From: an uncultured cyanobacterium
Lineage (GTDB): Bacteria > Cyanobacteriota > Cyanobacteriia > CAKZMO01
Assembly (NCBI GenBank): GCA_963719515.1
Contig: CAVRCJ010000001.1
Span: 223,153 to 287,152, forward strand
DNA: 64,000 nucleotides
Direction: 5' to 3'
Part shown: in pieces, positions 13,050 to 44,791 of the stretch
Layout: each line of letters opens with the position of its first letter
Numbering within the stretch: the first letter of the stretch is position 1
Made by a program: the position numbers and the translations under genes
The notes under the pieces: generated by a model
Seen by the model: only the letters and a program-made list of their open reading frames with translations
Database searches by the model: none
What the model was told of the DNA's origin: nothing

Positions 13050-13159
13050 GCAATTAGTTCCTAGCAAAGTAATTAGTATACTTCTCTCAAAGAGAGTTTT
13101 TCGATGATAGCGCCGTCCTAAAATGAGCCGTCGATAAGGAAAATGAGGATGCCGTCGCT

Positions 13160-21566: not shown

Positions 21567-22670
21567 GTGGATGGTGGTGGCATTATTCAAAGCGGCGAGG
21601 CGAACTTGACCCGCTGGCTGTCCTACCTGCCGTGCCGAGGAAAGTATGCCCGAAGTAAGCAACGGCGGCTATCGAGATGGCTGAACAATAGGCGCATCAA
21701 AGTGCACAAGCTCTACATGCCACTGATTCGCGCTGCTCTAGCGGACTGGGAGGAAAGCTGTCTATATCTGAGCCTTGATACCGCGCTGTTCTGGGACGAA
21801 TACTGCTTGGTGCGTGTCGCTGTCGTCTACCGCGGGCGGGCACTGCCCTTAGCTTGGCGAGTGCTGCATCATAAGAGCGCATCGGTGTCGTTCGACGCCT
21901 ACCGAGGGATGCTACATCAGGCCGCTGCTGTCTGCCGAGCGGTAAAGGTGATTTTTCTTGCAGACCGAGGCTTTGTGCAAAGCGAGCTGATGCGCGCCTC
22001 GCTCGCGCCACTGGCGATGGCACTACCGCATTCGGCTCGAAGAAGGACACCTGGGTATGGCGAAATGGCAAGGGCTGGCGGCAGCTCAAGGACTTCCACT
22101 CGCTCGGGGTGAGGCTTTCTGCTTCCACAACGTCCGCTTACACAAACAGCAGCGCTATGGCCCAGTCCACATTGCCTTTGGCTGCAACAGCGTCAACGGT
22201 GAGTTTTGGGCTATCATCAGCGATGAACCTACCACCCTGCAAACCTTTCGTGAGTACGGTCTGCGCTTCGATATCGAGGAATCCTTCTTGGACGACGAAT
22301 CCAACGGCTGGAATGTCCAAAAGTCCCACATTCGCTCTGCCCAGGCCTTCGAGACCATGGTTCATCCTAGCGCTAGCAACGCTTTACGCGACTGCCCAAG
22401 GCACTGAAGTGGTCAGTGCAGGAAAGCGTCGCTGGATTGACCTCATCGGTCCCGAGGCAACAGCTACTTCGCATCGGCTGTGAGTGGGTCAAAGCAGCTC
22501 TCGAAGACGGTTGGCGACTGATTCGCTCTGTCATCTTCTCTTCCGGTTACGACCCTGACCCCGTCATGCCATCGCGAAAGCAGCACCGCATACGAGCCGA
22601 GCGCCTTGAGTTTAAGGTACAAACGTACCGCTATCCCCCGACTAACTTTTGTCAGTCACTCAGGGCTTGA
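21567..22670 (+). mobile_element. IS4-superfamily (DDE) transposase, broken into at least 3 frames
   Basis: ORFs 21567-22112, 22057-22407 and 22416-22670 are consecutive pieces (..VIFLADRGF.., ..FREYGLRFDIEESFLDDESNGW..). The N-terminal part is paralogous to 29037-29603. Confidence 0.55.
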
Positions 22671-22734
22671 GATATAGCATAACGGCTCAAATCAGCGGCG
22701 GCGATCTAACTTAAACCTAACACCAGAAGTGGTG

Positions 22735-22800
22735 AGCCACAAATAAACGGTGTGGAGGTTCGCCCCGCCGGGGGGCGAACCTCCTGTTAGCGTCGTTCAG
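22735..22800. repeat. small palindromic element (taaacggtgt.g.ggttcgcccc ... cgtcgtt.a.ttatgg) with a perfect 12-bp-stem hairpin gaggttcgccccGCCGGggggcgaacctc
   Basis: A second copy with the same ends lies at 61640-61700. Confidence 0.45.
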
Positions 22801-25800
22801 TTATGGCCTTCTACTTAATGAGCATGTTGGGTTAGAGCGCAAGCGGAATCGTACGAATTGAAGCCAATGAGCCTCTTCTAAATATCTATTGTATTGGTTT
22901 AGTTGCTTAAGACAGACCGGTTGGCTCAAAGCCTCACGTTGTGTAGGCAACTGAACGCGCAGATGGCTTTGGAGTTGATCTGTAGGACATAAACGTATAA
23001 CCATAGGTGTCGTTAAATTGTTCAACAGTGTAATTTTCTCCTCTGTTTCACGAATTATGGCTTCAGTGATTGGGGCGACTTCGTGCTGCTGTATCGCTTG
23101 TGGAGCGGTTCATAAGATTGATTGATGAGGGCGACTGGCAGCGGGTGGGAGAAAGCACGCTAAAGCGAGACCGATGGCCGGGTCTATTCTCCATCTCGCC
23201 GCCGATCGTTGAGTAGGCGTTTTGCCGACAGGCGATCACAGGCTCGGCGCATCATCAGAAACGAGCCGAGCTCTGAGATGACGGCAATGCCGCTGTTGGC
23301 AAGCAGCGATCGCCAGCATTCGAGCGCGGCTCAAAGCCCAGATTGTAGATGGCCTCTCCGACCAAAGCAGGTTGATTGACCCCGCCGGCCAATTGAGTTC
23401 GCCCATGTCTTCGGAGATGGGAAGAATCACGGCGCCAGGCTACGGGTTGGGCTGGGTTTTGAGTTCATCGATAAAAACCGGCGAGGTATCCGACCGCCCT
23501 ACGGGGGCTGATAACGCTGGGCCAGCAGCAGGGCACAGCGCCACTGCCTGACCCCAGGTCAGCGATCGTGGGCGGGCGGCAGCGTCGTAAGGCCATCTAA
23601 AATGCGGCGCGAGAAGGTGGAATTGCTGGGCCTTGGTAAGGGAGATCGTGGCGCAAGTCAACGGAAGTGGTAACGTATTGGGTCTGGTTGTCCGTGCTCA
23701 CGCCAATTGTTGCGATCGCCAATAGCAAGCGGCTTTGGTGTATAAACGCCCCCGACTCACCTCCAGATAGAACAGACCTCAACGTCGATCCTCCGCCGCA
23801 ACCAGCGGCTCGACCGAACCGTCACGAAACAGCGACGTGGGGGTCCGAAGACCCCCAGCGTTATTCGCCTCAGCAAATCCTCCGCCAAGCACAGTCCGCC
23901 CGCCCCAACATTTTCGCGGTAGACCGATAGCCCTGGTCGCGATCGCTGATGACCTTGACCTCAATCGTGTTCTGTTGGCTGTTACGCCCCAGAAGCGCAG
24001 GTCACCAACCCCTCGGCCTGGCGGTTTGGCGAGGCCCCTCCCTGACTTTGGGATCAGCGTATCGCCGAGGAACCAGCGGGCGGCGCGAAAGCGATGGCTG
24101 CCGCCAGGCACCAGCTCAACGGTGGAGGCCTGGGGGCCAGCCAGCCGCCGACGTTAGGCCGGGTCAAGATGCCTCTTCGTATTGGAAGCCTTCGCCGTAG
24201 GGGTATCGAGCAGGGCATTGGAGTGCAGCACGATGCGGGTACGATGGCGTGATCACAAATGGTGATATCGACGCCGAAAGTCCGGGTCATACTGCACAGG
24301 GACGAGGGCGGGGGGATGGGCCGAGTGGGCGGATTCGAAGATAGCTCTGGCCTGCTTCTGGGCATAAAGAAGAGGGACGATCCAGCTTGGCGAGGTCAAG
24401 AGCCCAGCGCTGCCCTCGAACGACATCTATGCTGCTGGCGACGGTGCCCTCGAGACGCTGCCCTGGGTCGATTCGCACCGTATTTTGACGCCATTGCAGG
24501 GTTCACCCAACTGCTGCTGCGCGCGCTGGAGGAGCGGGACCTCGAGATCAGACGGAAGGGTCAAACCGCAGCAGTGAACGATATCAGTCCGGAGCCCTGG
24601 GTGATGCTGCTATGATCGCACAATCATCTGGCGGACCCACGGGCTTCCCTGGGGAGATCGCAGCAGTCGGTGCTCGTTCGGGCGGAAGCTTCATCAGGGT
24701 CTCCCCGTAAGGGCGCAGGCCGAACGCGGAAAGAACGACCCGCGTTCGGCGTACAGCTTTCCCAAGCCCGCCTCATCGGCGGCATCGCCGTCAGACAGGG
24801 TACGTCTGCCGACCTGAGTTCGGTAGCGAGGGCCTTTAGCTTACCTCAGAATGTACCGGTGATGGCCTATTTAACCGAGCCGCTTGTCCCGATTGTTCGC
24901 CAAGGACCCGGCAGAGGATATGCCCAGAAATCCCGTTGCGCCAAAAATGATGAAGTCTCGCTCGGAGGTGATTGCCGATTAAATATCCTCTGTTCTCTGC
25001 GGTGATCTTTAATCTGTCGTAATCGAGAAAACTATTCCACTGGGAAGGGTGGGCAAAGATCTGTTCAGCACTTGGAAGCCCCCACTCCCAGCCTCTTCCC
25101 CGAATGCTGAGGGAAGGGAACGAGCTCCCCTCTCCCTTTCTGAGCGTGGCTGGAGGCCGTAGTGGGAGAGGGGGCCGGGGGAGAGGGCGAGGATTGCGCC
25201 AACCACATACGTGGGCAGTGCCCACCCCTACACCTTATTCTGCCAGCCTAGAATCTTCTCACAATCCCATCCCACCTTTTCTGGCCATGACTCGAACTCA
25301 AAGCCGCACAGTTCAACTGCAACGGAAGCTGCGGGCGGCTTTGGGCAGATTCTGACCCGGCAACTGTTGCGAAGGCAGTCAAAACGGGTTTCGCAGATCA
25401 TCCGTCTGCAATCTCGTCATCTGAGCTCAAAACCCTCCAGGTAGGGGGCCAGCGCGGGTAAGGTAATCGCTGTTCAGACATTGATTTGGCAGATGCTGAC
25501 GGATGCGAAGCCCCTGGATGCTGCTGTGCAGCAGCTCAAAATTGCGCTCGATGTTTCCATCAACAACGCTGGCATGGCCTCATAGGTCCGACGGACGAAC
25601 TGCCTGCTGACCGGTGGGAAATGATGCTGCAGGTCATGATGATCTCTATGCGCCTGAAGGAGCCGCTTTGCTGCCGACAGCATGTAGAGTTTAGGGCATA
25701 TCGTTGATCTTCTTGGCGGTATGGATTGCAGCGCCTGGGCTGAGCGCTTATGCTCAGAGCAATACGGCTGCGAGGCTTCAGCGAGGGCTGCGCCACTAGC

Positions 25801-26099
25801 TTGCCCCCTACAAGGTGCGGGTCACTCCACTGTCTATCCTTCTCCTTCAGCTGGACGCCGCCGCTGGACAGTCCTCGCGTTTGGGCAGACTTGCTAAATC
25901 CGACGTCACGCGGCCCCGGGGGCGCTGACGACGCACCCACTGGATTATGGCTGCTATGGTTCGAGCGGGTCGAGTGCAATCAGAATGAGGTGTTTCTAGA
26001 TAAATTTGCCTTAGTCGGCCATTGGGTGAAGTCGTCATTCTCCTGTTGTCTCTAGGCTTATCAGGGCGGGTCGTTCCTTTGAGCCAAGCCTGATCATGG

Positions 26100-26900
26100 T
26101 GTCAGACTGGTCCACCCACCGGTGTTGCCAGGCTTCCTCGACTATTCCCGAGACTCTTCAAGCGAAATATCATAGCGATCGCTCAGCAGCTTGGGAATGC
26201 GATCGCAGTCGCGATTGGGATTCAGGGGTGGCTGCTGGGCGTAGGCCGGTAGGGCAATGTGACACAGAAAAGGCGAGGGTTTGGCCTCGAGCTGAAAGGG
26301 TTCGAGGTTTAAGGCTGCTGTGAGTTGAGGAAAAACAGCAGGGCCTCGCTGAGATTGGCGTCGCTGAGGTTGGCGTTGGTGAGCAGGGCGCAGTTGAGGT
26401 CGGCGTCGCTGAGGTTGGCATGGCTAAAGTCAGTATCGCTGAGGTTGGCGTATCTGAGGTCGGCCCCGCTGAGGTTGGCGTATCTCAGCGTCGCCCCGCT
26501 AAATCAGCTCCGTTGAGGTTAGCGCCAATTAGGTTGACGCCGTTGAGGTCGGCCGCCTAGGTTAGCGCCGATCAGGGCAGTTCCATTGAGGGTGGCGCTG
26601 CTCAGGGCGGCCCGCTAAGGTCGGCATTGATCAAGGTGGCGCCGCTGAAGTTAGCCCCGTTGAGGTTGACCCCGCTGAAGTCGCTGCCGCCTGATCAGCG
26701 CCGCAGAAGTGGCGGTGAGGCTGAGGTCTGGGGTGTCTGCTTTGGCAGTGCGAAGCTTAAGCAACAGAAGGGCGACACCGGCAACCGCCGCAATCATCCC
26801 CAGATCACCGAGCAGGCTAGCACGGTGAAGTTGAACCAGAGCTTCGCGGGGAGACTGGTGACCATCCGGCTGCAGTCTGCGCTCAGGAGCCCCCCCCACA
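26100..26900 (-). pseudogene. pentapeptide-repeat protein, frameshifted
   Basis: The reverse strand of the 15-bp periodic repeats (gctgaggttggcgtc = DANLS) encodes A(D/N)LSx pentapeptides. The N-terminal hydrophobic segment is in ORF 26651-26908. No continuous frame exists. Confidence 0.45.
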
Positions 26901-27053
26901 TCATCCACAGCAGCGCTGGAGCGGCGATCGCGTTAATCACCCATCGCTTTCTGGGCCTGACGGGTTGCCGCTGCTTAGATTGCTCCTGCATTTTGAGCCT
27001 CCCTCGATGCTGAGCCCATTGTTACGCGCCTAGATCTGGGAAGGCTCCAATCT

Positions 27054-27771
27054 TTATGCGGGCTTAAGTACTTCGTCGCGATAGCGCTGCACGACTTCAA
27101 CAGCCTGCTTAACGCCATCCTCGGCCCGAACTGCCGCCCCGATCGCCTTGGCTTGCTGTTGCATTTTGGCATCCGAAACCGCCACTGCGATCGCTGTTGC
27201 CAATCGGTCTGCGGTGAGCTGAGACTTGGGAACGGGCGCCGGACTGGTGCCCAGTCGATGCACCCGGTCGCCCCAAAACGGCTGGTCTCCAAAGAATGGA
27301 ACGACGACCGACGGAACGCCCGCTTTGAGGGCTGCGGCGGTGGTTCCCGCACCGCCGTGGTGGACGATCGCCGCCATTTGGGGGAATAGCCAATCGTGGG
27401 GGGCGGAATCGAGCAAAAACACCTGGTCGGGCAAATCCGTCTGAGAGATCCCACCCCAGCCTGTGAGTAAAACGCCCCGCTGCCCTGTCAGCTTGAGCGC
27501 TTCTAAAACCACCTGGGTGAACTGGGCTGGGTTCTCGCCGCTCATGCTGCCAAAGCCGACGTAGACCGGCGGGGATGGCCTGGACATCGCCAGCGATCGC
27601 GGTAAACTCCAGGCCATAGCGCTGCACCATCGCCTGAAAGGTATCGTGGGTCGCGAGTTTGACCTGGTGTCCAGCCTGCTGCAGGCCCAGGCCTAGGGCG
27701 ATAAAAGGCTGAACATCTCCCCGCGATCCAGTGGTCAAGATGGTGATCTTCATAGGGCAAGCTGTCATCAC
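27054..27771 (-). pseudogene. GT1-family (UDP-glycosyltransferase/MGT-like) glycosyltransferase, frameshifted and internally shortened
   Basis: The N-terminal MKITILTTGSRGDVQPFIALGLGLQQAGHQV and the C-terminal PSPG-like region (HDWLFPQMAAIVHHGGAGTTAAALKAGVPSVVVPFFGDQPFW) sit in two overlapping frames. Total length (~240 aa) is far short of GT1. Confidence 0.55.
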
Positions 27772-28639
27772 GCTGAAACCTTAAAGCGGGTAGCGCTGCC
27801 CACTAACCCACCGCACGTCCTCTATAAGCGTTATTACTGCTCTCGCATTCGCCGAAGTGCAATAGTAATCGTCCTGATGGTATGTGAGGATACTCTTCTA
27901 TGGAAAGAGCAAGCAGCAGTTATGCCCATGGTACAACCAGATCATTTGGAGGCCATACTGTGGTGCAACTCATCAAGCGGGTGATTTCGGTTGGAGCAGC
28001 GGCAGTAATTGGCGCGTTGGGTATGGCCTGCTCGGGCGAGCGCAAGCTGGAGGCCTGCCGATTTATTGAAATTGAACCCGCCGAAAGGAATTCGATCCGC
28101 GAAACTATAACGGAGCGGGCAATTCGCGAGGGCTGGGAACTGGAGGCGCTTTGCGAGATTCGCTGATTGATTTTAAGGGAAGCTGGCTTTTGAATCAGCT
28201 AGGGGTAGATATCAAAAGCGCGTATGACGAAGCTGATCCCAAGTAGGGCGCTGCGACACTCGCCCGAAATGGGCTATCTATTAAATCGATGAGGCTTCGG
28301 GCAGGCGTAATCCGAAAATTCGGCGACCTCACGCACTGTAGACGATGAATTTCGGCTAAGAAGGGAAACACCTGGAATTTTGATGATTGGCGGTATCAGG
28401 GTGCAGACTGCAGCTGCCTTAGAGGTGCAGAAATCTCGAAGGAGGCTTAAGCGGCTCATCGTGAGAAGCCGACCACCCTGAGAACTCGATTGGCAGTCTA
28501 AAGCGGCTCGCTTGCGCCTCGAGGCACAGGCTTTAGGTGGACTTTGGGGCGGCGGGCGATCAGCGTTGGCAGTCACACTCGCCTGTAGCAGCACCGTCCT
28601 ATATTTCTCGACCAAGCTGCAGAAAACTCAGTCCCCTAT

Positions 28640-29603
28640 CGCCATGCCAGTCGAGCTTTGAGCGTTGACCGCTGTGAACAAGGATCATGCCAACGATCAG
28701 CGCGATCAGATAGGCCGTGTCCAACAGCATGAATAGACACGTCAGGGCTTGAGCATCCCTCAGACCGGAAGCGACAACATTGAAGGCCGCCGACTTGTAG
28801 TCTTTGAAGTACGGCTCTATGCCGCCAAAGCGCTTGCCGTAGAGCGCGAAGGTTTGCAGGGAGGGGGGCGTGCTGATAGACCGCCCGGGCTCGCTGGCGT
28901 TGGGAAGGTGGCCTGTGACGAGGTGCGCCTCAATGTCCTCTAAGACAGTGACATTGTGTAATAGATAAGCTTGCTGCTCTGGGGGGATCGATATTGCACC
29001 GAACGAGTCGCTCCGGTGGCGAGGCGGACCTGCATGTCACACTTGACCCCAACCGCCCACTGCCACTGGCGCTCCTCGGCCGGACCAGCAGTTCTCTGTG
29101 GGCAAAGCTCGGTCAGCCGACAGCGTCACCCCGCAACCGGAGGGCACCAGCGCTTTGGCTGCCTCGAGAACGGGTTTGTCGTCCTTGAAGGCGACACTAG
29201 CACTCTTGTGCTCTAGCACCACCTGAGCCAAGGCAAACGAGCGCCCACCCCACACCAGACAGACTTCCACCAAACAGAACTGCTCCCACAGCATGCTGGT
29301 GTCTAAAGTTAGGGTAATCTCGCTGCCGTCAAATGCTTGCAGAGCATGGCGTAGGAGCGGTACGTAGAAGCGCTCAGCGCTGATGTGCTGGTTGTGAACC
29401 AAGTAGCTTAGGCGCTCCATGTGTGCTCTAGCCTCGCAGTTTCGATGGCTCAGGTAGGTGACCCATTTCCCCAGACAGGCGCTTTGAGATTGCAGGATAG
29501 CAGCGACTGCTTCTGCAACGCCTTGCAGGTGACGCTCGTCTTTTGGGTTGACCCATTGACGTAGTTGGTCCATCAGCTGACGATAAAGCAGGGGTGTTTC
29601 CAT
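28640..29603 (-). mobile_element. IS4-superfamily transposase relic (N-terminal ORF 29037-29603 plus frameshifted C-terminal remnant 28640-28960)
   Basis: N-terminal LTLDTSMLWEQFCLVEVCLVWGGRSFALAQVVLEHKSASVAF parallels 21700-21900. The C-terminal remnant encodes ...YGKRFGGIEPYFKDYKS... Confidence 0.5.
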
Positions 29604-30004
29604 TGATTTAGCTTTGAGTTGGGGAACTTAAGCTTCTCATGGAACACCCCTACCGTTAACCCCTGTCCTAGGCTGAGACTTTATGTATACCAATACTTTC
29701 AGGACTTCCCTGCACCACTAAGCTGCAGCTGCGAAGGGCGTCGAACCTCGCCCGCGGATGGATCGCTGGCTAATGAAGGACACCCGCTCAAGCGGCGTTA
29801 AGATACTCCGGATAGGCGTTTCAAGAACCGGATGACGGCAGCGGGCAACCTCCATCACTCGATTTCCAGCCTTGCTCAAGGGGGAACCGGTAGCGGCATT
29901 AGACGGGAGGCTCCGCTGTGCCCACGGCGGCGGCACTGTGGGCGTGATTCCGGCGTTTCTCGACCATTGGACCAGCTGGAATCAGGACGCTGAGTTTTCG
30001 GTGA

Positions 30005-30554
30005 TTGCGGTTTGCCCTCTCGCTGCTGAGCCGGGCTACTCGGGCGCAGGGTGAAGTGGAGCTGGTTCCTCAGGTTTCGGTTGAGGATTTGGTCGTTGAG
30101 CAGCTGGCCTGGCGCTCGGGCGAAAATCCAGACGGGCTGTCTGTCTGGTCGGCTGTATGGCGAGCCGTTAGGGATAGCGATCGCGGCTCGTTTGGCGGGG
30201 AATTACGGGGGTCGTGGCCGAAGGTTAAGGCCAGTGGGTTATCGCGATCGCAGCTGGCGCGGGTCGTTGATTATATGCAGGCGAATTTGGCGCGGGATTT
30301 ATCGGTTTTCGATTTGGCGGCTTTGACAGGGATGAGTGAGTCTCCTTTGCTCGCTCTTTCAAGCGATTGGCGGGGGTGTCGCCCTATCGATATTTGTTGC
30401 GGCTGCGGGAGGACGGGCGAAGGTGCTGTTGGCGGGGCGATCGGTTTCGATTAGCGCTGTTGCTCTGGATTGTGGGTTTGCGAATCAGACGCGTTTGACA
30501 AAGGTTTTTCGGCGGGTGATGGGGGTGACGCCTGGAGTTTATCGAAGGCGGTGA
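30005..30554 (+). pseudogene. AraC-family regulator C-terminal HTH fragment (frameshifted)
   Basis: LSRSQLARVVDYMQANLARDLSVFDLAALTGMSESP (first HTH), and ...VALDCGFANQTRLTKVFRRVMGVTPGVYRR (second HTH) in another frame. A ~35-bp piece (cagacgggctgtctgtctgg) recurs at 37800. Confidence 0.5.
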
Positions 30555-30585
30555 TTTAGAGGATGTCAAATCTGCGCACTGTAGA

Positions 30586-30669
30586 GGTAACAGTCACGCT
30601 CACCGGGCGCAGACAACCTTTGCGGCACGACCGAAGTTTTGGGTCGTTCCGGTGACGCGGTTGTTAGAC
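30586..30669. repeat. attC-like imperfect palindrome (GGTAAC-agTCACGCTCACCG ... CGGTGACGCGG-ttGTTAGAC)
   Basis: Outer cores are reverse complements (..TAAC / GTTAGAC) with inner inverted repeats. It sits exactly at the high-GC to AT-rich transition. Confidence 0.45.
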
Positions 30670-31790
30670 TCTTGGTGGGTTGCAGGTAATTAGCTGGTAA
30701 TCAACGATTCATGGTTTTCCCAGTTTTACCTCTAGTTTCTGTGCGAGCTCTGCTGCATCTGTAGCTTTTAGCTTTCCAATATCGAAATATTGCTTACTGC
30801 CGAACATCCTCCTGAACTTGCTTGACAAGATTAGTGGGATGCATATCATCCAATATAAATACCCTTACTGGATACCAAGATTCTCCAATTTCTTGGCGAC
30901 ATTTTATCGCAATCTGAATCATATCTTTTTCTAATCGGCTGACATTCGCTCCACAACAGACTCGCTTCATCTTCGTCTTCAGATTCCGAATCTACGACTG
31001 CTCGATTCGCGATACTTGTTCGACACATTTGTTGCGATATGCCCCAAAGTACAACTACGACGATGATTATAGGCTCCAGTTTGTGCTGGACAAGTGTATA
31101 TCTTTGTGTTCAGTACATATCAAACTTCCCTGTGCAGTTTACGACATCCAAGCGATACCTCCAAGACGGCAGCAAGCTATTTTCATCAAATATTGCGCCC
31201 AAATCTGAACTGCATCAATCAGATTTTTCGGCAGATAAGGCAACTGAATTGCTTGAAGAAATTGTTCAAAACTAACAAATGTAAAAGCAATACCCCTTCT
31301 TTAGCCTTGATTTCAACGTCCCGTAAAACCGGGTAGTTTGCTCGATGTTGCTGCTCAAAGTTGCCTAAAGCTATAAGTATTCTCTCTCCTTGCCTTGCTT
31401 CCGATATCTGTCGATGGGCTGGAAGACGTTCTTCCCCGAATCGCTGCCAAGCTTTGTCTCGATCAAAGTGAGAACGATCTTGAAAATTTCACCATCTGGC
31501 ACGCTGTCTTTCCCACGGCGCTGTTGAATGAACTTTACACCTACCGTTCCTGAAAAGCTTTCACCGATAGTAATCCTCGTGCTCCGAGAGAAATTTCGGA
31601 TTCTCTTGGTTCAGCATCTTAGAATTAAAAGACAGTGATTTGTTGTTTGATTTTCTCTCTGCCAGTAAGTTCGGAACAGACGTATGCTTCGACCCCGTCG
31701 TTTGTCGTTGTTAAGTTGACTAGAATGTCGATTCTACTTTCAAGCTCCTAGCTGATTTCTTAAATTGTACGCAGTCGTTGATTTAAGAGG

Positions 31791-31872
31791 GCTAACGTTC
31801 GGGTCACGGTTATCAGGATCTTTACGTCTTATCAAGCGGGTATGGTAATCTACTGCACCCGAATTGTTATGC
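31791..31872. repeat. attC-like imperfect palindrome (GCTAACgttcGGGT ... ACCCgaattGTTATGC)
   Basis: Same architecture as the sites at 30586, 47675, 50549, 53042 and 54290. Confidence 0.45.
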
Positions 31873-31884
31873 GGCGTCGTTGAC

Positions 31885-31930
31885 AAAGTGCGGGGTAGGG
31901 GAATCGAACCCCTCAGCGTTGCTCTTGGAT
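31885..31930 (-). other. tRNA 3'-half-like sequence (T-arm AGGGG-TTCGATT-CCCCT plus acceptor 3' strand ACCCCGC-A), not a complete tRNA
   Basis: GGTTCGATTCC T-loop consensus on the reverse strand. No matching D-arm or anticodon arm could be folded upstream. Confidence 0.35.
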
Positions 31931-32039
31931 GAGGCACTCTTCCGAACCTACACCGCTCCCAGTACATCTGGGTAGTCATCACGACCTCCGCAGCACCGCT
32001 CCCCGCATGAACCGACCGACGTATAGACAACAGGTGCAA

Positions 32040-32628
32040 TCATAAGCCCCTCCTTAATGTTGGTGAACAACGGAACCATTCGTGCACTGTTGAGCAGCCC
32101 TTAAGTACTCCAGAAGTACCCGTATCACCAAGATTTTGGGAAGGCTTGAGTACCAACCACCCCCATGATGTTGTAATTCTAGCTTTCCAACTGGACTCGA
32201 CACAACTGTTGTAGATGTATTTAAATGCTTTATTTCTTCTTGCAATTCTCTCAAACCACCTCTCAGCGGTCAGTGCTCCCGCCCCACTGATGCGGTGCTG
32301 TCGACAAGGGTTCCCACATCCCGTTGTCCGGGTTTGCGTACCATTCGTTGAGAATGAGAATTGCTCCGAACGATAAACCCAACCCAACTCCAGCAGCAAG
32401 TCTCGAGCAAAGGAAAGCGACCCACTGTGGGATCTCGTTTTTGTCCTCAGAGACCTTCTCCAGAAATACTGCTGCTCTCGAGAAAGTTGCCCAAATTCCC
32501 CCGAAAATAGTTAAATGTTCACTCTGAGTAAGGATACCTCCAGACGGAAAGCGAAGCGTGATGATGATGAAGGGAATGAAGATGATGAGCCCCTCGACAG
32601 CATACAGAATTTCTTTGGGTTGTCTCAT
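32040..32628 (-). CDS. hypothetical small membrane protein (AT-rich putative cassette gene)
   Basis: 121 aa with 3 hydrophobic segments. It is the only long ORF in AT-rich block 30700-32750 and is transcribed away from the attI-like site. Confidence 0.4.
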
Positions 32629-32790
32629 CTTCCTCCTCGTGCCTCCTCCATAAATTTTCTATTCATTTTTGTAGGATCTCTTGATGAGAAACTCTGAAAT
32701 ATCAGCGTCCCAATGACCTGAGTTAACATAACGCTATATGCAAAAATAATAACCACTTAGCTATTATCTCAACTGGAAGAAAGCGGCATA

Positions 32791-33020
32791 ACTATATATT
32801 CAACGTCAGATCTGACGGATAACACCCTGCTTCCCAGATCTTATCAGGCATATCTGACGGATAACACCCTACTTTCCGTGATTATTCACCGCATCTGACG
32901 TCTAACTCCGGGAATCTAGGGTGTTATCCGTCGCTCTTGTCTGATAACCATGGGTTCTAGGGTATTATCCGTCACTTTTGTCAGATAACACCCCATTTAG
33001 CGGTGTTATCCCGTGATTAG
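32791..33020. repeat. attI-like array: six copies of (C)TGACGGATAACACCC(T) in direct and inverted orientation, directly upstream of the integrase-remnant start
   Basis: Homologous arrays occur at 54431-54660 (6 copies) and, degenerate, at 35450-35520. The conserved left border is caactatatattcaacgtcagatctgacgg. Confidence 0.6.
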
Positions 33021-33022
33021 CC

Positions 33023-33103
33023 ATGTCGTCATCCCAGCCTCCTCGCCTGCTCGACCAAGTAAAGCAGGTGCTTCGTACAAAGCAATTGCAGCCTCACAAC
33101 TGA
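33023..33103 (+). pseudogene. integron-integrase-like tyrosine recombinase, N-terminal 27-codon remnant
   Basis: MSSSQPPRLLDQVKQVLRTKQLQPHN* compares with the IntI/XerC N-terminal ..LLDQVRE.IR.KHYS.RTE. A stop follows, and no recombinase catalytic domain is downstream. Confidence 0.5.
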
Positions 33104-33159
33104 GGAGTCCTACATCCACTACATCCACGAATTCATCCTATTGCACGGCGATCGCCCCA

Positions 33160-33365
33160 CAGCAGAACTCCAGAACAAGCCAGCAGAACTGCCGAGTCGG
33201 TCTACAGAACTCCCAAGCAGCTCAACAGAACTCCCGAGCAGCATTTTAGAACTCCTGAGCAGGTCAGCAGAACTAGCGAGCAGCACTACTCAACTCATTA
33301 GCAGCTCAACAGAACTCCAAAGCAACAATTTAGAACTGCTAAGCAGGTCAACAGCACTCCTGAGC
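33160..33365. repeat. ~10 tandem 21-bp repeats (cagaactcc.gagcag.....)
   Basis: Visible periodicity. Homologous array at 54836-55045 is in a different reading frame, so it is not protein-coding. Confidence 0.6.
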
Positions 33366-33513
33366 CGCGATCGCCCCCCCAAAGCGATCGCCCTCCCAAA
33401 GCAGAAAACCATCCCCACCCTCTTGCCAAGCCGCGCACAAATGTCCTACCTTATGGAGCTATGAGCCACAACCCATGGTTCTAGTCTCCCAAAGATTCGG
33501 TCTGGGCGGAGCC

Positions 33514-33535
33514 GCATGTTGTATGCGCAACATGC
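33514..33535. other. conserved hairpin GCATGTTG-n6/7-CAACATGC in module leader
   Basis: The stem is identical and the loops differ (tatgcg / ttgatcc / tgacac) in the three module copies (33514, 35689, 55157). Confidence 0.5.
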
Positions 33536-33674
33536 AGCCCCTAAGCCCCCACGACAGACACTGGCTGTCGGGAACGGCCTGGAGTAATGATATTACCCGG
33601 CCATCCCAAAACCAAAAACGTCGCGGATGTCCGGTCGGCGGGGGGCTCCAATTAACTCAAAAACGGAGTCCCTC

Positions 33675-34022
33675 ATGACAACTCAATATCATTCGCTGCC
33701 TCCCAAGGCGGCACAGTTCGCAGCGCCCCAAAACCCCGCTGCGGAACCCGCAGCGCTGCGGTTAGACTCCCCCATGGAAGCCGAACCCGCTATCTCCACG
33801 CTGATTGAACCCTCCCCAGCGCCGGGCTGCGAGCATTTGCGCCACATCATCATCGGCTCCCCCGAAGGCGTGCGCCAAGCCATCAACCGGCTGCACGTGC
33901 TGCAGTACGTCGAGTGGCGGCTGTGGACCCCGCTGATTGCCATCGGCGAAAAAGGCGTCCACATCACCCCCACCCAAGGCCAAGTGCTCAGCTACCTCAT
34001 CCAGCAGCGGCCTATTCAATAG
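33675..34022 (+). CDS. conserved hypothetical protein, module copy 1 (115 aa)
   Basis: MTTQYHSLPP...CEHLRHIIIGSPEGVRQAINRLHVLQYVEWRLWTPLIAIGEKGVHITPTQGQVLSYLIQQRPIQ. A GGAG ribosome-binding site lies 7 bp upstream. Paralogues are at 35851-36198 and 55317-55691. Confidence 0.6.
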   Translation: MTTQYHSLPPKAAQFAAPQNPAAEPAALRLDSPMEAEPAISTLIEPSPAPGCEHLRHIIIGSPEGVRQAINRLHVLQYVEWRLWTPLIAIGEKGVHITPTQGQVLSYLIQQRPIQ

Positions 34023-34119
34023 CTAGCCCCAGTACTTCACAAAATACTCTGACTGCGATTTAGGGAGGGGAGGAAAGGGGGTAGAGTCAGGCTACCTAAA
34101 ATCGAACTTTAGCCATGTC

Positions 34120-34536
34120 TCAATCCCCTTCTTCAGTTAGAAATTCTTCAGGAGAAAGTGCGGAAACCAGGGACTTTGTAAAATCTGAACCATTTCGGGT
34201 GATGATCGCCGCTGCCCCGCTTGCTGTAGCGGCTGCGCTAGTGACCGCGTCCTCAAAGTCCACCATGGTACTTTTAAGGGCCGTATGAATTACCGATTCT
34301 GTGATGCTAGCCACTTCAAGAATTTGCGCGATCGCCGAGAGAAGCCGGATAGCCTCTTCCCTGCCGACTTTACGGCGCAGGATATAGAACATATTCGTGA
34401 CTGCATGGCCAGCAACCATTCCCTCGTTACCGGGTACAGTTGCCCAGGTCAAAGCCTTCGCAGATTCAACCACGAAAGGTTGACGTTCCATCAACACATC
34501 CAGCAGAACATCACTATCAAAAAGAACTCGCTTCAA
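34120..34536 (-). CDS. PIN-domain (VapC-like) toxin
   Basis: MKRVLFDSDVLLDVL..., ...D..TSAAATASGAAAIITRNGSDFTKS; acidic residues at PIN positions. Confidence 0.7.
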   Translation of the reverse strand: MKRVLFDSDVLLDVLMERQPFVVESAKALTWATVPGNEGMVAGHAVTNMFYILRRKVGREEAIRLLSAIAQILEVASITESVIHTALKSTMVDFEDAVTSAAATASGAAAIITRNGSDFTKSLVSALSPEEFLTEEGD

Positions 34537-34790
34537 CCGTATTTCTTCTCTAGATAATCAATGTATGATGCTTGAGAATCTTGATCATCAAGTGGAACAG
34601 CGCCAACTAGACTCTGTACTAAGGGATGTAGCTCAGCCTTCCACGATGAATCAGGCTCAGGAACTTCTCGCGAAATGGAGTGGGGTTTCCTGAGCGACTC
34701 AAGCAAGCGAATCGCTACCTGCAAGCGCTCTTCTTGAGATAGCTGGCTTGCCGCTGCTAAGACTTCCTGGGCCGTCATATTTTCCTCCAA
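34533..34790 (-). CDS. putative antitoxin / addiction-module component
   Basis: An 85 aa protein (MTAQEVLAAASQLSQEERLQVAIRLLESL) encoded immediately upstream of, and overlapping by 4 bp, the PIN gene. Confidence 0.5.
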   Translation of the reverse strand: MEENMTAQEVLAAASQLSQEERLQVAIRLLESLRKPHSISREVPEPDSSWKAELHPLVQSLVGAVPLDDQDSQASYIDYLEKKYG

Positions 34791-35443
34791 GAACGATTGG
34801 CGGCTAGCTCTCGTACGGTTATTGGCGAGTAGGTCTTAATCGGCGTGAAGAGTTCGTGTTTACCAAGCTGTGCAAAGAGCGGGCCATCTGCGCTGAAGGA
34901 TGATGACTTTGTAAGGGTATCGAGGCGGAAGTCGCGCCGCTGAAATTTGCCCTTACCCAAGTAGCCCCACTCGGCAAAGGTAATTGGCTGACCAGAATGC
35001 GTGCGCATTGTCAGCGCGTCACCATGTACGAGGTTTTGCGATAGCACATAGGACGTAGCCCAATAGAGATCGTCCTCGTCATTTAGACTCAGGTACTCGG
35101 CAAAGATCGATACCATATTGGCGCGGCACTCAGCGATATTGTCCGCCAGTAGCTCAATTCCATAGGTACACATCAGCGCGAGCAGCGCGTAGTGCCGTCG
35201 CTCAAAGTCAGACTTACCATACTTGAGCTCTACAGCGGCGAGCTTGCGCTGAACCACCTGCACCAGAAAGTTGCCGCTGCCGCACGCCGGCTCTAGAAAG
35301 CGAGAGTCAATGCGCTCTGTCTCGTCTTTTACTAGGTCCAGCATTGCTTCCACCATCCACGGTGGCGTAAACACCTCTCCGTGGTCGGCAACACGCTGCT
35401 TGGACTTGACGTAGTTCATAGGCTGACGCTCTGCTGTAGTCAT
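34775..35443 (-). CDS. N6-adenine DNA methyltransferase-like protein, apparently truncated (N-terminal half only)
   Basis: Motif X-like VFTPPWMVEAMLDLV and motif I LEPACGSGNFLV. No (N/D)PP(Y/F) motif was seen within the 222 aa. Confidence 0.45.
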   Translation of the reverse strand: MTTAERQPMNYVKSKQRVADHGEVFTPPWMVEAMLDLVKDETERIDSRFLEPACGSGNFLVQVVQRKLAAVELKYGKSDFERRHYALLALMCTYGIELLADNIAECRANMVSIFAEYLSLNDEDDLYWATSYVLSQNLVHGDALTMRTHSGQPITFAEWGYLGKGKFQRRDFRLDTLTKSSSFSADGPLFAQLGKHELFTPIKTYSPITVRELAANRSWRKI

Positions 35444-35850
35444 TGTGGGCTAACTATATAACCAACACCTATTCAATAACACTCTACTTTCCCAAATCTT
35501 ATCAAGCAATTCTGCTAAGTAGTACTATTATATCTTTTGCGATCGCCCCCCAAAAGCGATCGCCCCACACCACACCACAAAAAACCGCCCCACCCTCTTG
35601 CCAACCCGCGCACAAATGTCCTACCTTATGGAGCTATGAGCCACAACCCACGGTTCTAGTCTCCCAAAGATTCGGTCTGGGCGGAGCCGCATGTTGTTGA
35701 TCCCAACATGCAGCCCCTAAGCCCCCACGATAGGAGTTGGCTATCGGGAACGGCCTGGAGTAATGATATTACCCGGCCATCCCAAAACCAAAAACGTCGC
35801 GGATGTCCGGTCGGCGGGGGACTCCAATTAACTCAAAAACGGAGTCCCTC

Positions 35851-36198
35851 ATGACAACTCAATATCATTCGCTGCCCCCCGAGGCGGCACAGTTCGCAGC
35901 GCCCCAAAACCCCGCCGCGAACCCATCCACGCTGCGGCTAGACTCCCCCATGGAAGCCGAGCCCGCTATCCCCACCCTCATCGAGCCCTCCCCAGCGCCG
36001 GGGTGTGAGCACCTACGGCACATCATCATCGGCTCCCCCGAAGGCGTGCGCCAAGCCATCAACCGGCTGCACGTGCTGCAGTACGTCGAATGGCGGCTGT
36101 GGACCCCGCTAATTGCCATCGGCGAAAAAGGCGTCCACATCACCCCCACCCACGGCCAAGTGCTCAGCTACCTCATCCAGCAGCGGCCCATCCGATAG
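35851..36198 (+). CDS. conserved hypothetical protein, module copy 2
   Basis: About 85 percent identical to copy 1. It follows the same leader and hairpin (35689-35711) and a degenerate attI-like stretch (35450-35520). There is no integrase remnant and no 21-bp repeats. Confidence 0.6.
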   Translation: MTTQYHSLPPEAAQFAAPQNPAANPSTLRLDSPMEAEPAIPTLIEPSPAPGCEHLRHIIIGSPEGVRQAINRLHVLQYVEWRLWTPLIAIGEKGVHITPTHGQVLSYLIQQRPIR

Positions 36199-36282
36199 CC
36201 GTCGGAACGACCCGCGATCGCCCCCAGAGCCGCCCACCTGGCCTCTAGGCGGCGATCGCCACCCCATCTCCTGCTCTGATAT

Positions 36283-41080: not shown

Positions 41081-44000
41081 ATGACTGACCCGTCTGACCA
41101 GAGTATCCGCATTAACGAAAGCGCTGTGGGTAGCGCCATTGTGTCTGGCAGCGGCAACACCGTCTATGTCATCCATCAAGCGCAGGCGCGGCAGCAAGAC
41201 CCGGTGCAGTCTGATGGTGGTGCTGGGCGAGCGTCTACGCAAATTGGCCCTAACCCCTACAAAGGGCTATCCGCCTTTCAAGAGCAAGACGCCGATCGCT
41301 ACTTTGGCCGGGAGGCGCAGGTGGCGCGGCTCTGGCAGCGGTTTCGTGAGCTGTATGAACAAGCCAATCGAGAGGATGCGCCGCCGCGATTTTTGCCTAT
41401 TTTGGGGCCTTCGGGCTGCGGGAAGTCGTCTTTGGCGCGGGCGGGGCTGATACCGGAGCTGGCCCGGCAGGCGGGGCAGATCGCTAAGGAAACCCTGCGG
41501 GTGGCGGTGCTGGTGCCGGGAGAGTCGCCGCTGAAAGCCTTGGCCGGGGTGCTGGCGAGGCTGACGCAAGATGACCAGACGCCAGAGGTGATCAAGAAGC
41601 GCAGCTACGAAAAAGACCTACGAGAGTCTGCTGCTGAGGGACGGTATGACTTTTTGCAGGACGTTGCCGAAACGCTATCCGATATCCACGTGACGCCGCT
41701 GGTGGTGCTGGTGGACCAGTTTGAGGAAATCTACTCGCTATGTAAAGACGCCAGCGATCGCCATACCTTTATCGAAACGCTGCTGCAGGCGGCGAGCAGC
41801 GCCACGGGCTACGTCACCGTTGTCATTACCCTGCGCAGCGATTTTTTGGCCGAAACCCAGCGCCACCCGCAGCTGAACCAAATCATTGGCTCTGACCGCA
41901 GCGTGATTGTGCCTGCGATGTCGGAGGCGGAGCTGCGGCGGGCGATCGCCCAACCGGCGATTCAGGCGGGGCATCCGCTGGATGATGCCGTGGTGGATTT
42001 GTTGGTGAAGGATACGGAGGGGCGGGAGGGGGCGCTGCCGCTGCTGCAGTTTGCCCTGACGCGGATTTGGGAGGGGCTGGGAGACGGGAAGACGGCTGCG
42101 GAGACCTACCGGGAGATGGATGGGGTGGGCGGTGCCCTGGCGGGGAAGGCGCAGGAGATTTATGACCGGCTGCCGGAGGCGGAGCAGGCGATCGCCCGAC
42201 GGGTGTTTGTGGGACTGGTGCAGCTGGGGGAGGGGACGCGGGATACGCGGCGGCGGGCAGAGGTGGAAACGCTGATGACCAGTCGCGATAAGCCGGAGGC
42301 AGTGAAGCAGGTGATTGGTCAGTTTTCGTCGCCGGGGGCGCGGCTGGTGACGCTGTCGGGGGAGGAGGGCCAGGGCGTTGCTGAGGTGACCCATGAGGCG
42401 CTGTTTGACCATTGGCAATTGCTGAATGACTGGCTGGATGCTAACCGCGACGATATCCGCTTTCAGCGGCGACTGGAGGCAGCAGCGGGGTATTGGGAGA
42501 AGCAGGGAAGGCCGGATGGGCTGCTGTGGCGGCCTCCAGATTTGGATTTGCTGCGGGGTTTTGCGCAGAAGGCGCAGCTAGACATGACCCCGCTGGCGAC
42601 TGACTTCTATGAGGCGGCAGATGCGGCTGAGCGGCAAGAAAAGCGGCGGCGACGGTTGAACCTCTATGGGTTGAGGGCTGGCTTAGTTGTTATGACAGTC
42701 CTCACCAGCTTTGCTGGATTCAAAGTCAACCAGGCTGGGCGCAGGCAAATGCAATATTACGCTGAGAGGGCAGAGAATCTCGGCAGTTCTGACCCACTCC
42801 GTAGCCTTGTCAATGGCTTAGCCGCCATCCAGCTCAGTCGTTCAACCCTTCTTAAAGCCCCGTTTGTCTGGCAGTCTTCGCGTTTCACCTCAGCCATTCT
42901 AGATATACCCAACCGAACAAAGCGCTTTGGTTATGGAATGGGCCATTCATCTCGGGTTCGTTCAGTTGCCATCAGCACCGACGGCCAGACCATCGTCAGC
43001 GGTAGCGATGATGATACGGTGCGGCTGTGGGACCGGCAGGGCAACCCCATCGGCCAGCCCTTCAGCCATTCATCTCGGGTTAATTCAGTTGCCATCAGCA
43101 CCGATGGCCAGACCATCGTCAGCGGTAGCGTTGATGGGACGGTGCGGCTGTGGGACCGGCAGGGCAACCCCATCGGCCAGCCCTTCGAGGGCCATTCATC
43201 TTGGGTTAATTCAGTTGCCATCAGCACCGATGGACAGACCATCGTCAGCGGTAGCTTTGATAATACGGTGCGGCTATGGGATCGGCAGGGCAACCCCATC
43301 GGCCAGCCATTCGAGGGCCATTCATCTGAGGTTAATTCAGTTGCCATCAGCGCCGATGGCCAGACTATCGTCAGCGGTAGCCGTGATAGAACAGTGCGGC
43401 TGTGGGACCGGCAGGGCAACCCCATCGGCCAGCCCTTCGAGGGCCATTCATCTTCGGTTAATTCAGTTGCCATCAGCACCGATGGCCAGACCATCGTCAG
43501 CGGTAGCTCTGATAATACGGTGCGGCTGTGGGACCGGCAGGGCAACCCCATCGGCCAGCCTTTCAGGCATTTAGATTCGGTTTATTCAGTTGCCATCAGC
43601 AACGACGGCCAGACCATTGTCAGCGGTGGCCTTGATAGAACAGTGCGGTTGTGGGACCGGCAGGGTAACCCCATCGGCCAGCCTTTCGAGGGACATTCAT
43701 CTTTGGTTAATTCAGTTGCCATCAGCAATGACGGTCAGACCATTGTCAGTGGTAGCAGTGATGATACTGTGCGGCTGTGGAACCGGCAGGGTAACCCCAT
43801 CGACCGGCCTTTTGAAGGTCATTTAGATTCGGTTTTGTCAGTTGCCATCAGCAACGACGGTCAGACCGTCGTCAGCGGCAGCAGTGATAGAACGGTGCGG
43901 CTGTGGGACCGGCAGGGCAGCCCCATCGGTCAGCTGCTTGAGGGACATTCAGATTCAGTTAGTTCAGTTGCCATCAGCAACGACGGCCAGACCGTCGTCA

Positions 44001-44791
44001 GTGGTAGTGTGAATGGAACGGTACGGCTGTGGGACCGGCAGGGCAGCCCCATCGGCCAGCCTTTCAGCCATTCGGATTATGTTCATTCAGTTGCCATCAG
44101 CAACGACGGTCAGACTATCGTCAGCGGTAGCACTGACAGAACGGTACGGCTATGGGACCGGCAGGGCAATCCCATTAGCCAGCCTTTTGAAGGCCATTCA
44201 TCTTCGGTTTTGTCAGTCGCCATCAGCAACGACGGTCAGACTATCGTCAGCGGTAGCATTGATAATACGGTGCGGCTATGGGATCGGCAGGGTAGCCCCA
44301 TCGGCCAGCCTTTCAGTCATTCAGATTCGGTTTATTCAGTTGCCATCAGCAACGACGGTCGGACCATTGTCAGCGGTAGCTTTGATAGAACGGTACGGCT
44401 GTGGGACCGGCAGGGTAACCCCATCGGCCAGCCTTTTGAAGGCCATTTATCTCGGATTAGGTCAGTTGCCATCAGCACCGACGGCCAGACCATCGTCAGC
44501 GGTAGCATTGATAATACGGTGCGGCTGTGGGACCGGCAGGGTAACCCCATAGGCCAGCCGCTCAAGGGTCATTCATCTTCGGTTATGTCAGTCGCCATCA
44601 GCACCGACGGCCAGACCATTGTCAGCGGTAGCTTTGACAAGACGGTGCGGCTGTGGCCTATATGGCTATCAAGTGGCTGGATTCCCTACACCTGCGATCG
44701 CCTCAAAGGATACCTGTTAGTCGTTGGCCAAACCGACGATGACGCCGCCCGCGAAGCCCTCCGAGCCTGCCGCCGCTACGCCTGGAAATAG
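41081..44791 (+). CDS. NACHT-family STAND NTPase with 14 C-terminal WD40 repeats
   Basis: Walker A ILGPSGCGKSSLARAG, and Walker B LVVLVDQFEEIY. A long helical region is followed by 14 WD40 units of the GHSS.V.SVAIS.DGQTIVSGS.D.TVRLWDRQGNPIGQPF type. Confidence 0.85.
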   Translation: MTDPSDQSIRINESAVGSAIVSGSGNTVYVIHQAQARQQDPVQSDGGAGRASTQIGPNPYKGLSAFQEQDADRYFGREAQVARLWQRFRELYEQANREDAPPRFLPILGPSGCGKSSLARAGLIPELARQAGQIAKETLRVAVLVPGESPLKALAGVLARLTQDDQTPEVIKKRSYEKDLRESAAEGRYDFLQDVAETLSDIHVTPLVVLVDQFEEIYSLCKDASDRHTFIETLLQAASSATGYVTVVITLRSDFLAETQRHPQLNQIIGSDRSVIVPAMSEAELRRAIAQPAIQAGHPLDDAVVDLLVKDTEGREGALPLLQFALTRIWEGLGDGKTAAETYREMDGVGGALAGKAQEIYDRLPEAEQAIARRVFVGLVQLGEGTRDTRRRAEVETLMTSRDKPEAVKQVIGQFSSPGARLVTLSGEEGQGVAEVTHEALFDHWQLLNDWLDANRDDIRFQRRLEAAAGYWEKQGRPDGLLWRPPDLDLLRGFAQKAQLDMTPLATDFYEAADAAERQEKRRRRLNLYGLRAGLVVMTVLTSFAGFKVNQAGRRQMQYYAERAENLGSSDPLRSLVNGLAAIQLSRSTLLKAPFVWQSSRFTSAILDIPNRTKRFGYGMGHSSRVRSVAISTDGQTIVSGSDDDTVRLWDRQGNPIGQPFSHSSRVNSVAISTDGQTIVSGSVDGTVRLWDRQGNPIGQPFEGHSSWVNSVAISTDGQTIVSGSFDNTVRLWDRQGNPIGQPFEGHSSEVNSVAISADGQTIVSGSRDRTVRLWDRQGNPIGQPFEGHSSSVNSVAISTDGQTIVSGSSDNTVRLWDRQGNPIGQPFRHLDSVYSVAISNDGQTIVSGGLDRTVRLWDRQGNPIGQPFEGHSSLVNSVAISNDGQTIVSGSSDDTVRLWNRQGNPIDRPFEGHLDSVLSVAISNDGQTVVSGSSDRTVRLWDRQGSPIGQLLEGHSDSVSSVAISNDGQTVVSGSVNGTVRLWDRQGSPIGQPFSHSDYVHSVAISNDGQTIVSGSTDRTVRLWDRQGNPISQPFEGHSSSVLSVAISNDGQTIVSGSIDNTVRLWDRQGSPIGQPFSHSDSVYSVAISNDGRTIVSGSFDRTVRLWDRQGNPIGQPFEGHLSRIRSVAISTDGQTIVSGSIDNTVRLWDRQGNPIGQPLKGHSSSVMSVAISTDGQTIVSGSFDKTVRLWPIWLSSGWIPYTCDRLKGYLLVVGQTDDDAAREALRACRRYAWK
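42927..44650. repeat. 14 tandem 120-bp repeats (WD40-coding) with very high nucleotide identity
   Basis: Each repeat recurs almost base for base, and differences cluster at 4-5 codon positions per unit. Confidence 0.8.

Follow-up and report, generated by a model that had tools for sequence, protein, structure and literature searches.

A multi-helix leader RNA of predicted two-state design, carried by a small orphan protein gene of filamentous cyanobacteria

The cyanobacterial glutamine riboswitch (glnA RNA motif) lies upstream of genes for small regulatory proteins, e.g. gifB, and in ribosomal-protein leaders the protein binds its own mRNA and stabilises a hairpin that hides a ribosome-binding site (RBS). 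In chromosomal integrons of other bacteria, pseudogenes of the integrase gene intI, or 'pseudo-integrons', have been described (PMC2426708), as have cassette clusters without an integrase (PMC4889954), and multiple decayed intI copies per genome are documented for integrons in general (PMC2426708, PMC4889954). The element considered here invites comparison with both. It occurs three times in a 64,000-nt stretch of an uncultured cyanobacterium (assembly GCA_963719515.1, contig CAVRCJ010000001.1, positions 223,153 to 287,152 of the forward strand), called the window below, and consists of a putative promoter, a leader RNA and an open reading frame (ORF) for a small protein. The analysis, computational throughout, makes it rather likely that leader and ORF form an autonomous unit, that the leader is a bistable translational switch, and that the decayed integron is a neighbour limited to one clade.

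The leader shares several traits with translational riboswitches: a long structured 5′ untranslated region ahead of a small cyanobacterial protein gene, a conserved multi-helix domain, and two helices, of which only one can form at a time, that cover or expose the RBS. It differs in having a larger putative sensor domain (~140 nt with four or more hairpins) that is closed by the anti-sequestor helix, in being confined to Leptolyngbya-like cyanobacteria, and in lacking an Rfam counterpart. There were no Rfam matches at gathering thresholds in the whole window, and only chance-level matches at E values up to 10 in the region 32700-34100. The likeness is one of sequence and predicted folding; at that level the leader has what is expected of a riboswitch, i.e. 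a covariation-supported structured domain and mutually exclusive helices that would control the RBS. The neighbouring genes offer no hint as to a ligand. What is new here, on this evidence, is an undescribed structured leader with switch architecture that is tied to an unannotated cyanobacterial protein family.

Several observations identify the leader as a structured, multi-helix RNA of a family not in Rfam. Copy 1 has a minimum free energy of -86.1 kcal/mol (z = -3.69 versus shuffles), and an alignment of 17-19 leaders displays a series of hairpins with compensatory changes, including one right ahead of the AUG that has the RBS sequence GGAG as its 3′ arm. Paired cells amount to 95-95.5% in the RNAalifold structure and the alignment based on a covariance model (CM), versus 35-47% when the partners are slid; pairs changed on both sides number from 18 (RNAalifold structure) to 28, and the observed pairing and covariation values were reached by none of 500 shuffles. 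One hairpin has an 8-bp stem, GCATGTTG at 33514-33521 paired with CAACATGC at 33528-33535, that is identical in all three window copies, and its loops read TATGCG, TTGATCC and TGACAC in copies 1, 2 and 3, respectively. Across the family, 10 of the 12 pairs in the helix of this hairpin are changed on both sides. G-U pairs are frequent in the structure; read from the opposite strand they would become C-A mismatches, which places the structure on the plus-strand RNA. The CM also finds the element upstream of homologues that are only 35-40% identical in protein and were absent from model building (48 bits, E = 3e-12, for loci L034-36; 43 bits, E = 1e-10, for the Leptothoe locus L033; L-numbers denote related loci found outside the window, P-numbers homologous proteins). 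Identity of the leader between window copies is 88-95%, while the synonymous divergence (dS) of the ORF is 0.27-0.56; the leader is more conserved than the ORF behind it. Ahead of it, the -35 sequence TTGCCA and the -10 sequence TAnnnT are kept in 16 of 17 aligned loci, from which we infer a sigma-70-type promoter and a transcription start.

How might such a leader act on translation? Two predicted helices compete for one strand. In copy 1 the RBS hairpin has 10 bp and ends one base ahead of the AUG; its 5′ arm together with the preceding bases (UCUUUGGGGGACU, with CCGG before) is complementary to the invariant 5′ segment AGUCUCCCAAAGAUUCGG. The long-range helix so predicted has 17 pairs (columns 37-55 with 202-220), and 92% of its cells are paired in the CM-based alignment of 21 sequences. 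As the CM was built with the anti-sequestor columns unpaired, the alignment was not fitted to this helix. Five of its pairs are changed on both sides, and the column pair 49/209 is G-C in 13 sequences and A-U in seven. The RBS hairpin is represented in the same 21 sequences by nine pairs, seven of which are changed on both sides. Distant homologues have rebuilt both helices from different complementary sequences; L034, for instance, combines a fully compensated long-range helix, ACCCAAAAAUUUAG:CUAAAUUUUUGGGU, with a hairpin GGGUUUUCCU..AGGAAAACCC. The duplex energy of the long-range helix is -17 to -21 kcal/mol in most members and that of the hairpin -16 to -21 kcal/mol. When either fold is forced, the state with the long-range helix (ON) and the state with the hairpin (OFF) differ by no more than ~3 kcal/mol in 11 of the 21 members, the values for L014 and L026 being unreliable owing to a shifted pairing register. 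No U-run follows the RBS hairpin, and an action on translation, not on termination, is therefore indicated. An RNA thermometer was considered as well and rejected, the hairpin being a near-perfect, G+C-rich stem of 9-12 bp with -16 to -21 kcal/mol in most members.

The leader would accordingly be described as a riboswitch-like bistable translational switch. In the OFF state, the strand GGGGGACU(CC) would pair with GGAGUCCC and bury the RBS in a stable hairpin reaching to the AUG; in the ON state the same strand would join the 17-pair helix, the central multi-hairpin domain would be closed and the RBS free. From the modelled folds we infer that switching does occur. The balance would be set by a signal read by the central domain. 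What is that signal? A metabolite, a protein (possibly the unit's own product) or folding kinetics may be considered. A small-molecule ligand is a possible trigger, the encoded or another protein a slightly weaker candidate, and the remaining weight falls on purely kinetic or constitutive folding. A more far-reaching proposal, which we hold to be doubtful, is that the leader represents a new riboswitch class: a metabolite would be the ligand of the ~140-nt domain, the helix that closes this domain would also serve as anti-sequestor, and the switch would gate an orphan family expanded in Leptolyngbya-like cyanobacteria, the unit of one lineage having been co-opted as a fixed integron partner, perhaps with the adjoining repeat array described below. 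Were this so, integron-proximal expression would be coupled to the same signal.

Alternatively, the leader might be an autoregulatory operator, where the encoded protein binds its own leader and stabilises the RBS-hiding hairpin with no small-molecule sensing. Leader and protein do occur together throughout the family, even where protein identity is as low as 35-40%, and the hairpin loops differ between paralogues while the stems are kept, which could give paralogue-specific recognition. However, the protein has no recognisable RNA-binding fold, and the nucleotides of the junctions are conserved from one paralogue to another, a pattern more in keeping with a common ligand than with paralogue-specific binding. 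Autoregulation of this kind seems unlikely.

Returning to the switch as part of an autonomous unit, copy 1 was split into its parts and each part was searched for in all related loci (blastn, nhmmer and CM). The leader is present wherever upstream sequence exists, in 30 or more related loci that include the divergent L014 and L026. Of ~14 distinct non-window loci for which 600 nt or more of upstream sequence are available, most adjoin unrelated housekeeping genes. GGATAACACCC sites were found in L008 only, and L008 is also the only locus outside the window where an attI-like region, an integrase remnant and an array of 21-bp repeats are found together. Eleven or more loci have no integrase, attI-like or array sequence and adjoin unrelated genes; next to the promoter there may be a gene for a glycogen-debranching-type enzyme or a mannitol dehydrogenase, a DUF928/CHAT pair, a type III CRISPR locus or flavodiiron protein genes. 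The distant homologues in Leptothoe and in a JGI metagenome lineage stand alone. Leader and ORF are, by these comparisons, probably an autonomous unit, and the integrase-side parts accompany only one clade of paralogues.

Homology sets in abruptly at the -35 box and stops with the stop codon of the ORF. Such sharp limits would suit a mobile unit of small size in which promoter, leader and ORF spread together, with conservation of the leader reflecting a DNA-level function as a recombination or transposition site. There are several gene copies per genome, up to about nine per metagenome-assembled genome (MAG) and often at contig ends, and some of them are pseudogenes. But the frequent G-U pairs, as C-A mismatches on the other strand, and the exchange of whole helices for different complementary sequences in distant members speak for a function in RNA; the paralogues are old (dS 0.6-1.2), some of them hold one and the same position across genomes or samples (L016 and L022; L025/28/29; L030-32), and no terminal repeats or target duplications were seen. 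Mobility as the cause of leader conservation is very improbable.

The small ORF, to go by its substitution pattern, is a real gene under purifying selection: the ratio of nonsynonymous to synonymous divergence (dN/dS) is mostly 0.1-0.25 between paralogues and lower in the C-terminal core. Close relatives form only 36 clusters among 5.8 billion proteins, and the few with a named source come from Elainellaceae or unclassified cyanobacterial MAGs. When 1.8 billion cluster representatives were searched with a profile, 153 small proteins of 46-185 amino acids (aa) were obtained, which have the C-terminal core LRHILIGSPxGVxxTIHxLHxLxYxExxxWSPLIxIPxxGIxITPxQGEVMSYL; wherever a profile match has a named source, it is listed as a 'hypothetical protein' and comes from a filamentous cyanobacterium (Oculatella, Leptothoe, Leptolyngbya or Moorena). 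Neither the protein nor its distant homologues matched Pfam, NCBIfam, PADLOC or PHROGs, and the protein had no match among PDB sequences. The searches point to a protein of 115-130 aa from an unannotated family that is restricted to filamentous cyanobacteria. It consists of a disordered tail and a compact conserved core with no catalytic motif, and one may guess at a small binding or adaptor protein. An upstream in-frame ATG (33627) was rejected as the true start, as it is not conserved in other loci. In L034 (also L035 and L036) the database gene call begins within the leader (5001-5078); in L034 the CM places the RBS hairpin there, followed by an AUG at 5073, which gives a protein of ~104 aa, not 128. 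The significance of the unit lies in this association, a well-delimited structured RNA element outside Rfam, of two-state design, attached to a conserved cyanobacterial protein family without annotation.

In the window, repeat finding and a three-way MAFFT alignment define homologous stretches at 33405-34025, 35580-36201 and 55051-55694. Common to all three are ~255 nt of promoter and leader, followed by an ORF of 115, 115 and 124 codons. Leaders are 95% identical between copies 1 and 2 and 88% between copies 1 and 3; the corresponding figures for the ORFs are 92% and 83%. Copies 1 and 3 have extra parts, namely an attI-like region of ~235 bp, a short integrase N-terminus and ten 21-bp repeats. 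Copy 2 has no integrase N-terminus (tblastn) and no 21-bp repeats (Tandem Repeats Finder, TRF); a faint trace of the distal attI-like region is followed directly by the leader. The junction between integrase remnant and array, GCGATCGCCCCACAGCAGAACTC, is the same in copies 1 and 3, which therefore go back to one already deleted common ancestor, and the three window copies would stem from duplication of an already decayed composite. The original prediction, made by inspection of the window, had assigned four parts to the copies. This holds for leader and ORF in all three and for the integrase N-terminus in copies 1 and 3; the ten repeats, expected in every copy, are missing from copy 2. It was right about the invariant 8-bp stem with differing loop, about the position and length (115-124 aa) of the ORFs, about the greater divergence of copy 3 and about a protein without a characterised family, where no fold match was found either. 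The leader is the conserved element that it was said to be, with covariation for both helices and distant members recovered by the CM. The identity of ~85% given for copies 1 and 2 was an underestimate, and the GGAG, although present 6 nt ahead of the ATG, is not a free RBS, as it forms the 3′ arm of the 10-bp hairpin.

What is the nature of the integrase-side parts? As in decayed chromosomal integrons, the remnant fits best with the integron integrase model and has binding-site-like repeats upstream of its start, accessory, low-GC, toxin-antitoxin-type genes lie on the other side, and there are several decayed copies per genome. Differences are the deletion of the IntI-specific additional domain in every copy, which makes membership unprovable, and the lack of an identified attC, for which there was a generic repeat search of 17000-32800 that gave no repeated family and applied no attC model. 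The described integron platform also differs, in that here an array of 21-bp repeats and a conserved, putatively switch-controlled gene stand downstream of intI. Four sites are described for the classical attI; the attI-like regions of the window hold more. That of copy 1 is 80% identical to 54424-54660 and 86% to L008 512-728. The regions show three direct ATCTGACGGATAACACC copies and then inverted copies, spaced 41-42 bp (four helical turns). A reading of GGATAACACC as a DnaA box was rejected by eye, with six of nine positions fitting.

Locus L008 has attI-like sites, an internally deleted intI (51 N-terminal and 39 C-terminal residues with stop codon), the array and the gene, in this order. 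The array begins ~55 bp past the intI stop codon; the -35 box comes next, and then the gene. The intI remnants of L008 score best against the TIGR02249 integron integrase (E = 5e-30, versus 1e-9 for XerC/D), a match that covers the N- and C-terminal remnants, the region for the additional domain being the deleted one. The remnant of copy 1 stops at a HIP1 site, where the 21-bp array starts; GCGATCGC (HIP1) sites are found throughout the window. In L022 only 'FILFHGDRHP' is left of the integrase, 250 bp upstream of the leader, and in L277 only the last three repeat units remain. In L021, at 5947-6097 and directly downstream of an smpB-like ORF (by eye), an integrase N-terminal fragment runs straight into the final ~25 codons of the small ORF; this fusion arose by deletion and keeps the integrase ahead of the gene. 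A neighbour-joining tree unites the linked copies (window 1-3 and L008) in one clade and places L022 in its sister clade, the other clades having no trace of an integrase. L277 is not in the tree; its placement with the linked copies relies on its protein P0003, which has 92% identity to copy 1 and the INRLHVLQYVEWRLW motif of that clade. Where the upstream region of linked-clade members is known (window copies, L008 and L277), the linkage has the same strand and the same order. The linkage with the integrase is, from these comparisons, real and clade-specific.

The ancestral order would have been attI-like sites, intI, array, promoter, leader and gene, with intI transcribed toward the gene. 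Independent deletions would have destroyed the integrase in different copies, the gene staying under purifying selection; the distribution of remnants indicates at least four separate losses of the integrase with retention of the gene. The decay series, N- plus C-terminal remnant, N-terminal remnant, array alone, fusion and nothing, offers an unusually complete view of how an integron platform erodes. In a search for intact integrases, a concatenated 91-aa query (integrase N-terminus plus C-terminus) drew chiefly short proteins with an internal deletion. They fall into over 120 clusters with lengths of 74-160 aa (P0254-P0373), nearly all with both PF13495 and PF00589 matches, and those with a named source belong to several phyla. 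'Mini' integrases of the integron type, shortened by internal deletion, seem to be common in metagenomes.

Could small protein, leader and array instead be a functional part of an integron-like element, a regulator or accessory recombination factor in the position of the integrase, as had first been proposed? In favour are the same-strand, same-order linkage to intI in all linked-clade members with known upstream sequence, the remnants at L021 and L022, and the occurrence of the array only between intI and this gene. Yet the eleven or more loci mentioned above and all distant homologues lack integrase, attI-like and array sequences, the gene stands behind the intI stop codon and is kept under purifying selection after intI is lost, and the protein is not similar to any recombination or DNA-binding family. 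Such a role is improbable. The link to integron-type integrase remnants noted in the original prediction is real and repeated (window, L008, L021, L022 and L277), but it is not constant: placement by attI-like repeats extends to one of ~14 non-window loci, distant homologues are found alone, and homologues lacking such repeats beside them are what the original prediction had itself named as counting against it. Nor is a replacement of the integrase supported. In L008 array and gene follow the C-terminus and stop codon of intI, which makes the gene a neighbour on the downstream side, one that persists while intI decays independently in different copies. Nothing indicates a role in recombination. 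The correction has a wider meaning, as the gene would be a stable neighbour that outlasts a repeatedly decaying integrase, not a new component of integrons.

Several points weigh against an autonomous unit with a switchable leader and a decayed neighbour. The effective number of sequences in the leader alignment is 2.4, mostly close relatives, and the covariation rests largely on five or six divergent members. The promoters of the window copies score under the threshold of a consensus scanner. In the window copies and L277, the strand of the ON helix is UCGGCGGGGGG rather than UCUUUGGGGG (window sites 33631-33649, 35807-35825 and 55273-55291), and in the window copies this results in a 3x3 internal loop in the ON helix and in an OFF state favoured by 10-12 kcal/mol. 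The window copies may be locked off or switch differently, and the integrase-linked clade may be regulated differently. The structure model of the protein has a single assigned helix and no fold match; a first model, built from 34 close sequences, was poor (pLDDT 52). Finally, an intact intI followed by this gene was not found in the integrase search, and the ancestral order rests on remnants.

Iterons at plasmid replication origins and parC-type partition sites are also arrays of direct repeats. The array found here is similar in consisting of 10-15 direct 21-bp repeats (two helical turns) with a conserved 15-bp core, AGAACTCCTGAGCAG, and a variable spacer, just upstream of a promoter. It differs in that no replication or partition gene is nearby and in that it is absent from most gene copies, so the gene does not need it. 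A coding interpretation as heptad repeats was rejected, the longest open frame differing among copy 1, copy 3 and L008; variable positions cluster in the 4-6 nt spacer and do not recur at every third base. The array is, on this pattern, non-coding, and it looks like a phased binding-site array. Viral contigs scanned for the 21-bp core and the GGATAACACCC site gave single matches, one per contig, that were judged to be chance, and no arrays. Other tandem repeats in the window are 126-bp repeats at 42940-44656, inside a 1236-aa ORF (41081-44791), 15-bp repeats at 26342-26682 that are pentapeptide-like by eye, and 52-bp non-coding repeats with HIP1 at 5691-6092. Coordinates of the main features are given in Table 1.

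Table 1. Features of the three copies of the unit and of the sequences beside them in the window
Feature	Position	Strand	Remarks
AttI-like region, copy 1	32786-33020	+	~seven GGATAACACC(C) sites, direct and inverted, 41-42 bp spacing
Integrase N-terminal remnant, copy 1	33023-33155	+	tblastn; MSSSQPPRLLDQVKQVLRTK, frameshift, LTTEESYIHYIHEFILLHGDRP
Ten 21-bp tandem repeats, copy 1	33163-33372		TRF; core AGAACTCCTGAGCAG(C/G)T + 4-5 variable bases
Putative promoter, copy 1	33423-33452	+	TTGCCA, 18 nt, TACCTT; conserved GCACAAATG in spacer
Leader RNA, copy 1	33453-33674	+	CM R1 match 33453-33680, 200.7 bits
5′ strand of predicted long-range (ON) helix	33483-33500	+	AGUCUCCCAAAGAUUCGG
Hairpin with invariant 8-bp stem	33514-33535	+	GCAUGUUG/CAACAUGC, variable loop
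Shared strand of the two predicted helices	33631-33649	+	CCGG..GGGGGGCUCC; partner 33483-33500 (ON) or GGAG arm (OFF)
Predicted RBS-sequestering hairpin	33640-33674	+	GGGGGGCUCC, 15-nt C/A-rich loop, GGAGUCCCUC; -18.1 kcal/mol
Small-protein gene, copy 1	33675-34022	+	115 aa; dN/dS 0.12-0.26
Degenerate trace of distal attI-like end (~65 bp), copy 2	35451-35516	+	nhmmer E 0.03; visual alignment
Leader RNA, copy 2	35628-35850	+	CM R1 201.4 bits
Small-protein gene, copy 2	35851-36198	+	115 aa; identical to P0001
AttI-like region, copy 3	54424-54660	+	context of copy 3
Integrase N-terminal remnant, copy 3	54663-54755	+	tblastn match 54663-54737; more decayed than copy 1
Ten 21-bp repeats, copy 3	54828-55037		orthologous unit by unit to copy 1
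Leader RNA, copy 3	55099-55316	+	CM R1 196.5 bits
Small-protein gene, copy 3	55317-55691	+	124 aa; identical to P0006

Among the decayed copies outside the window, L016 has a frameshifted small ORF and the 5′ half of its leader is replaced by unrelated sequence; within L016 324-1600, a minus-strand ORF (324-995) resembles a group II intron reverse transcriptase by eye. The minus strand between copies 1 and 2 of the window (34120-35443) carries a gene for a PIN-domain toxin (34120-34536), one that is antitoxin-like (34533-34790) and one for an N6 DNA methyltransferase in truncated form (34775-35443), content that is typical of cassettes or islands. On the cassette side of the copy-3 attI-like site, the segment 49000-54400 has 34-44% GC, versus 52-63% in the flanking kilobases, and looks like imported DNA; its genes encode a T5orf172-domain protein (49538-50395), a dynamin-like GTPase (50791-52680) and a DUF3800 protein (53123-54256). 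A magnesium-chelatase H gene lies at 55819-59799. A 174-nt stretch at 13144-13317 is 86% identical to 46841-47014, part of a 424-aa ORF (46041-47315), and looks like a gene fragment duplicated 33.7 kb away.

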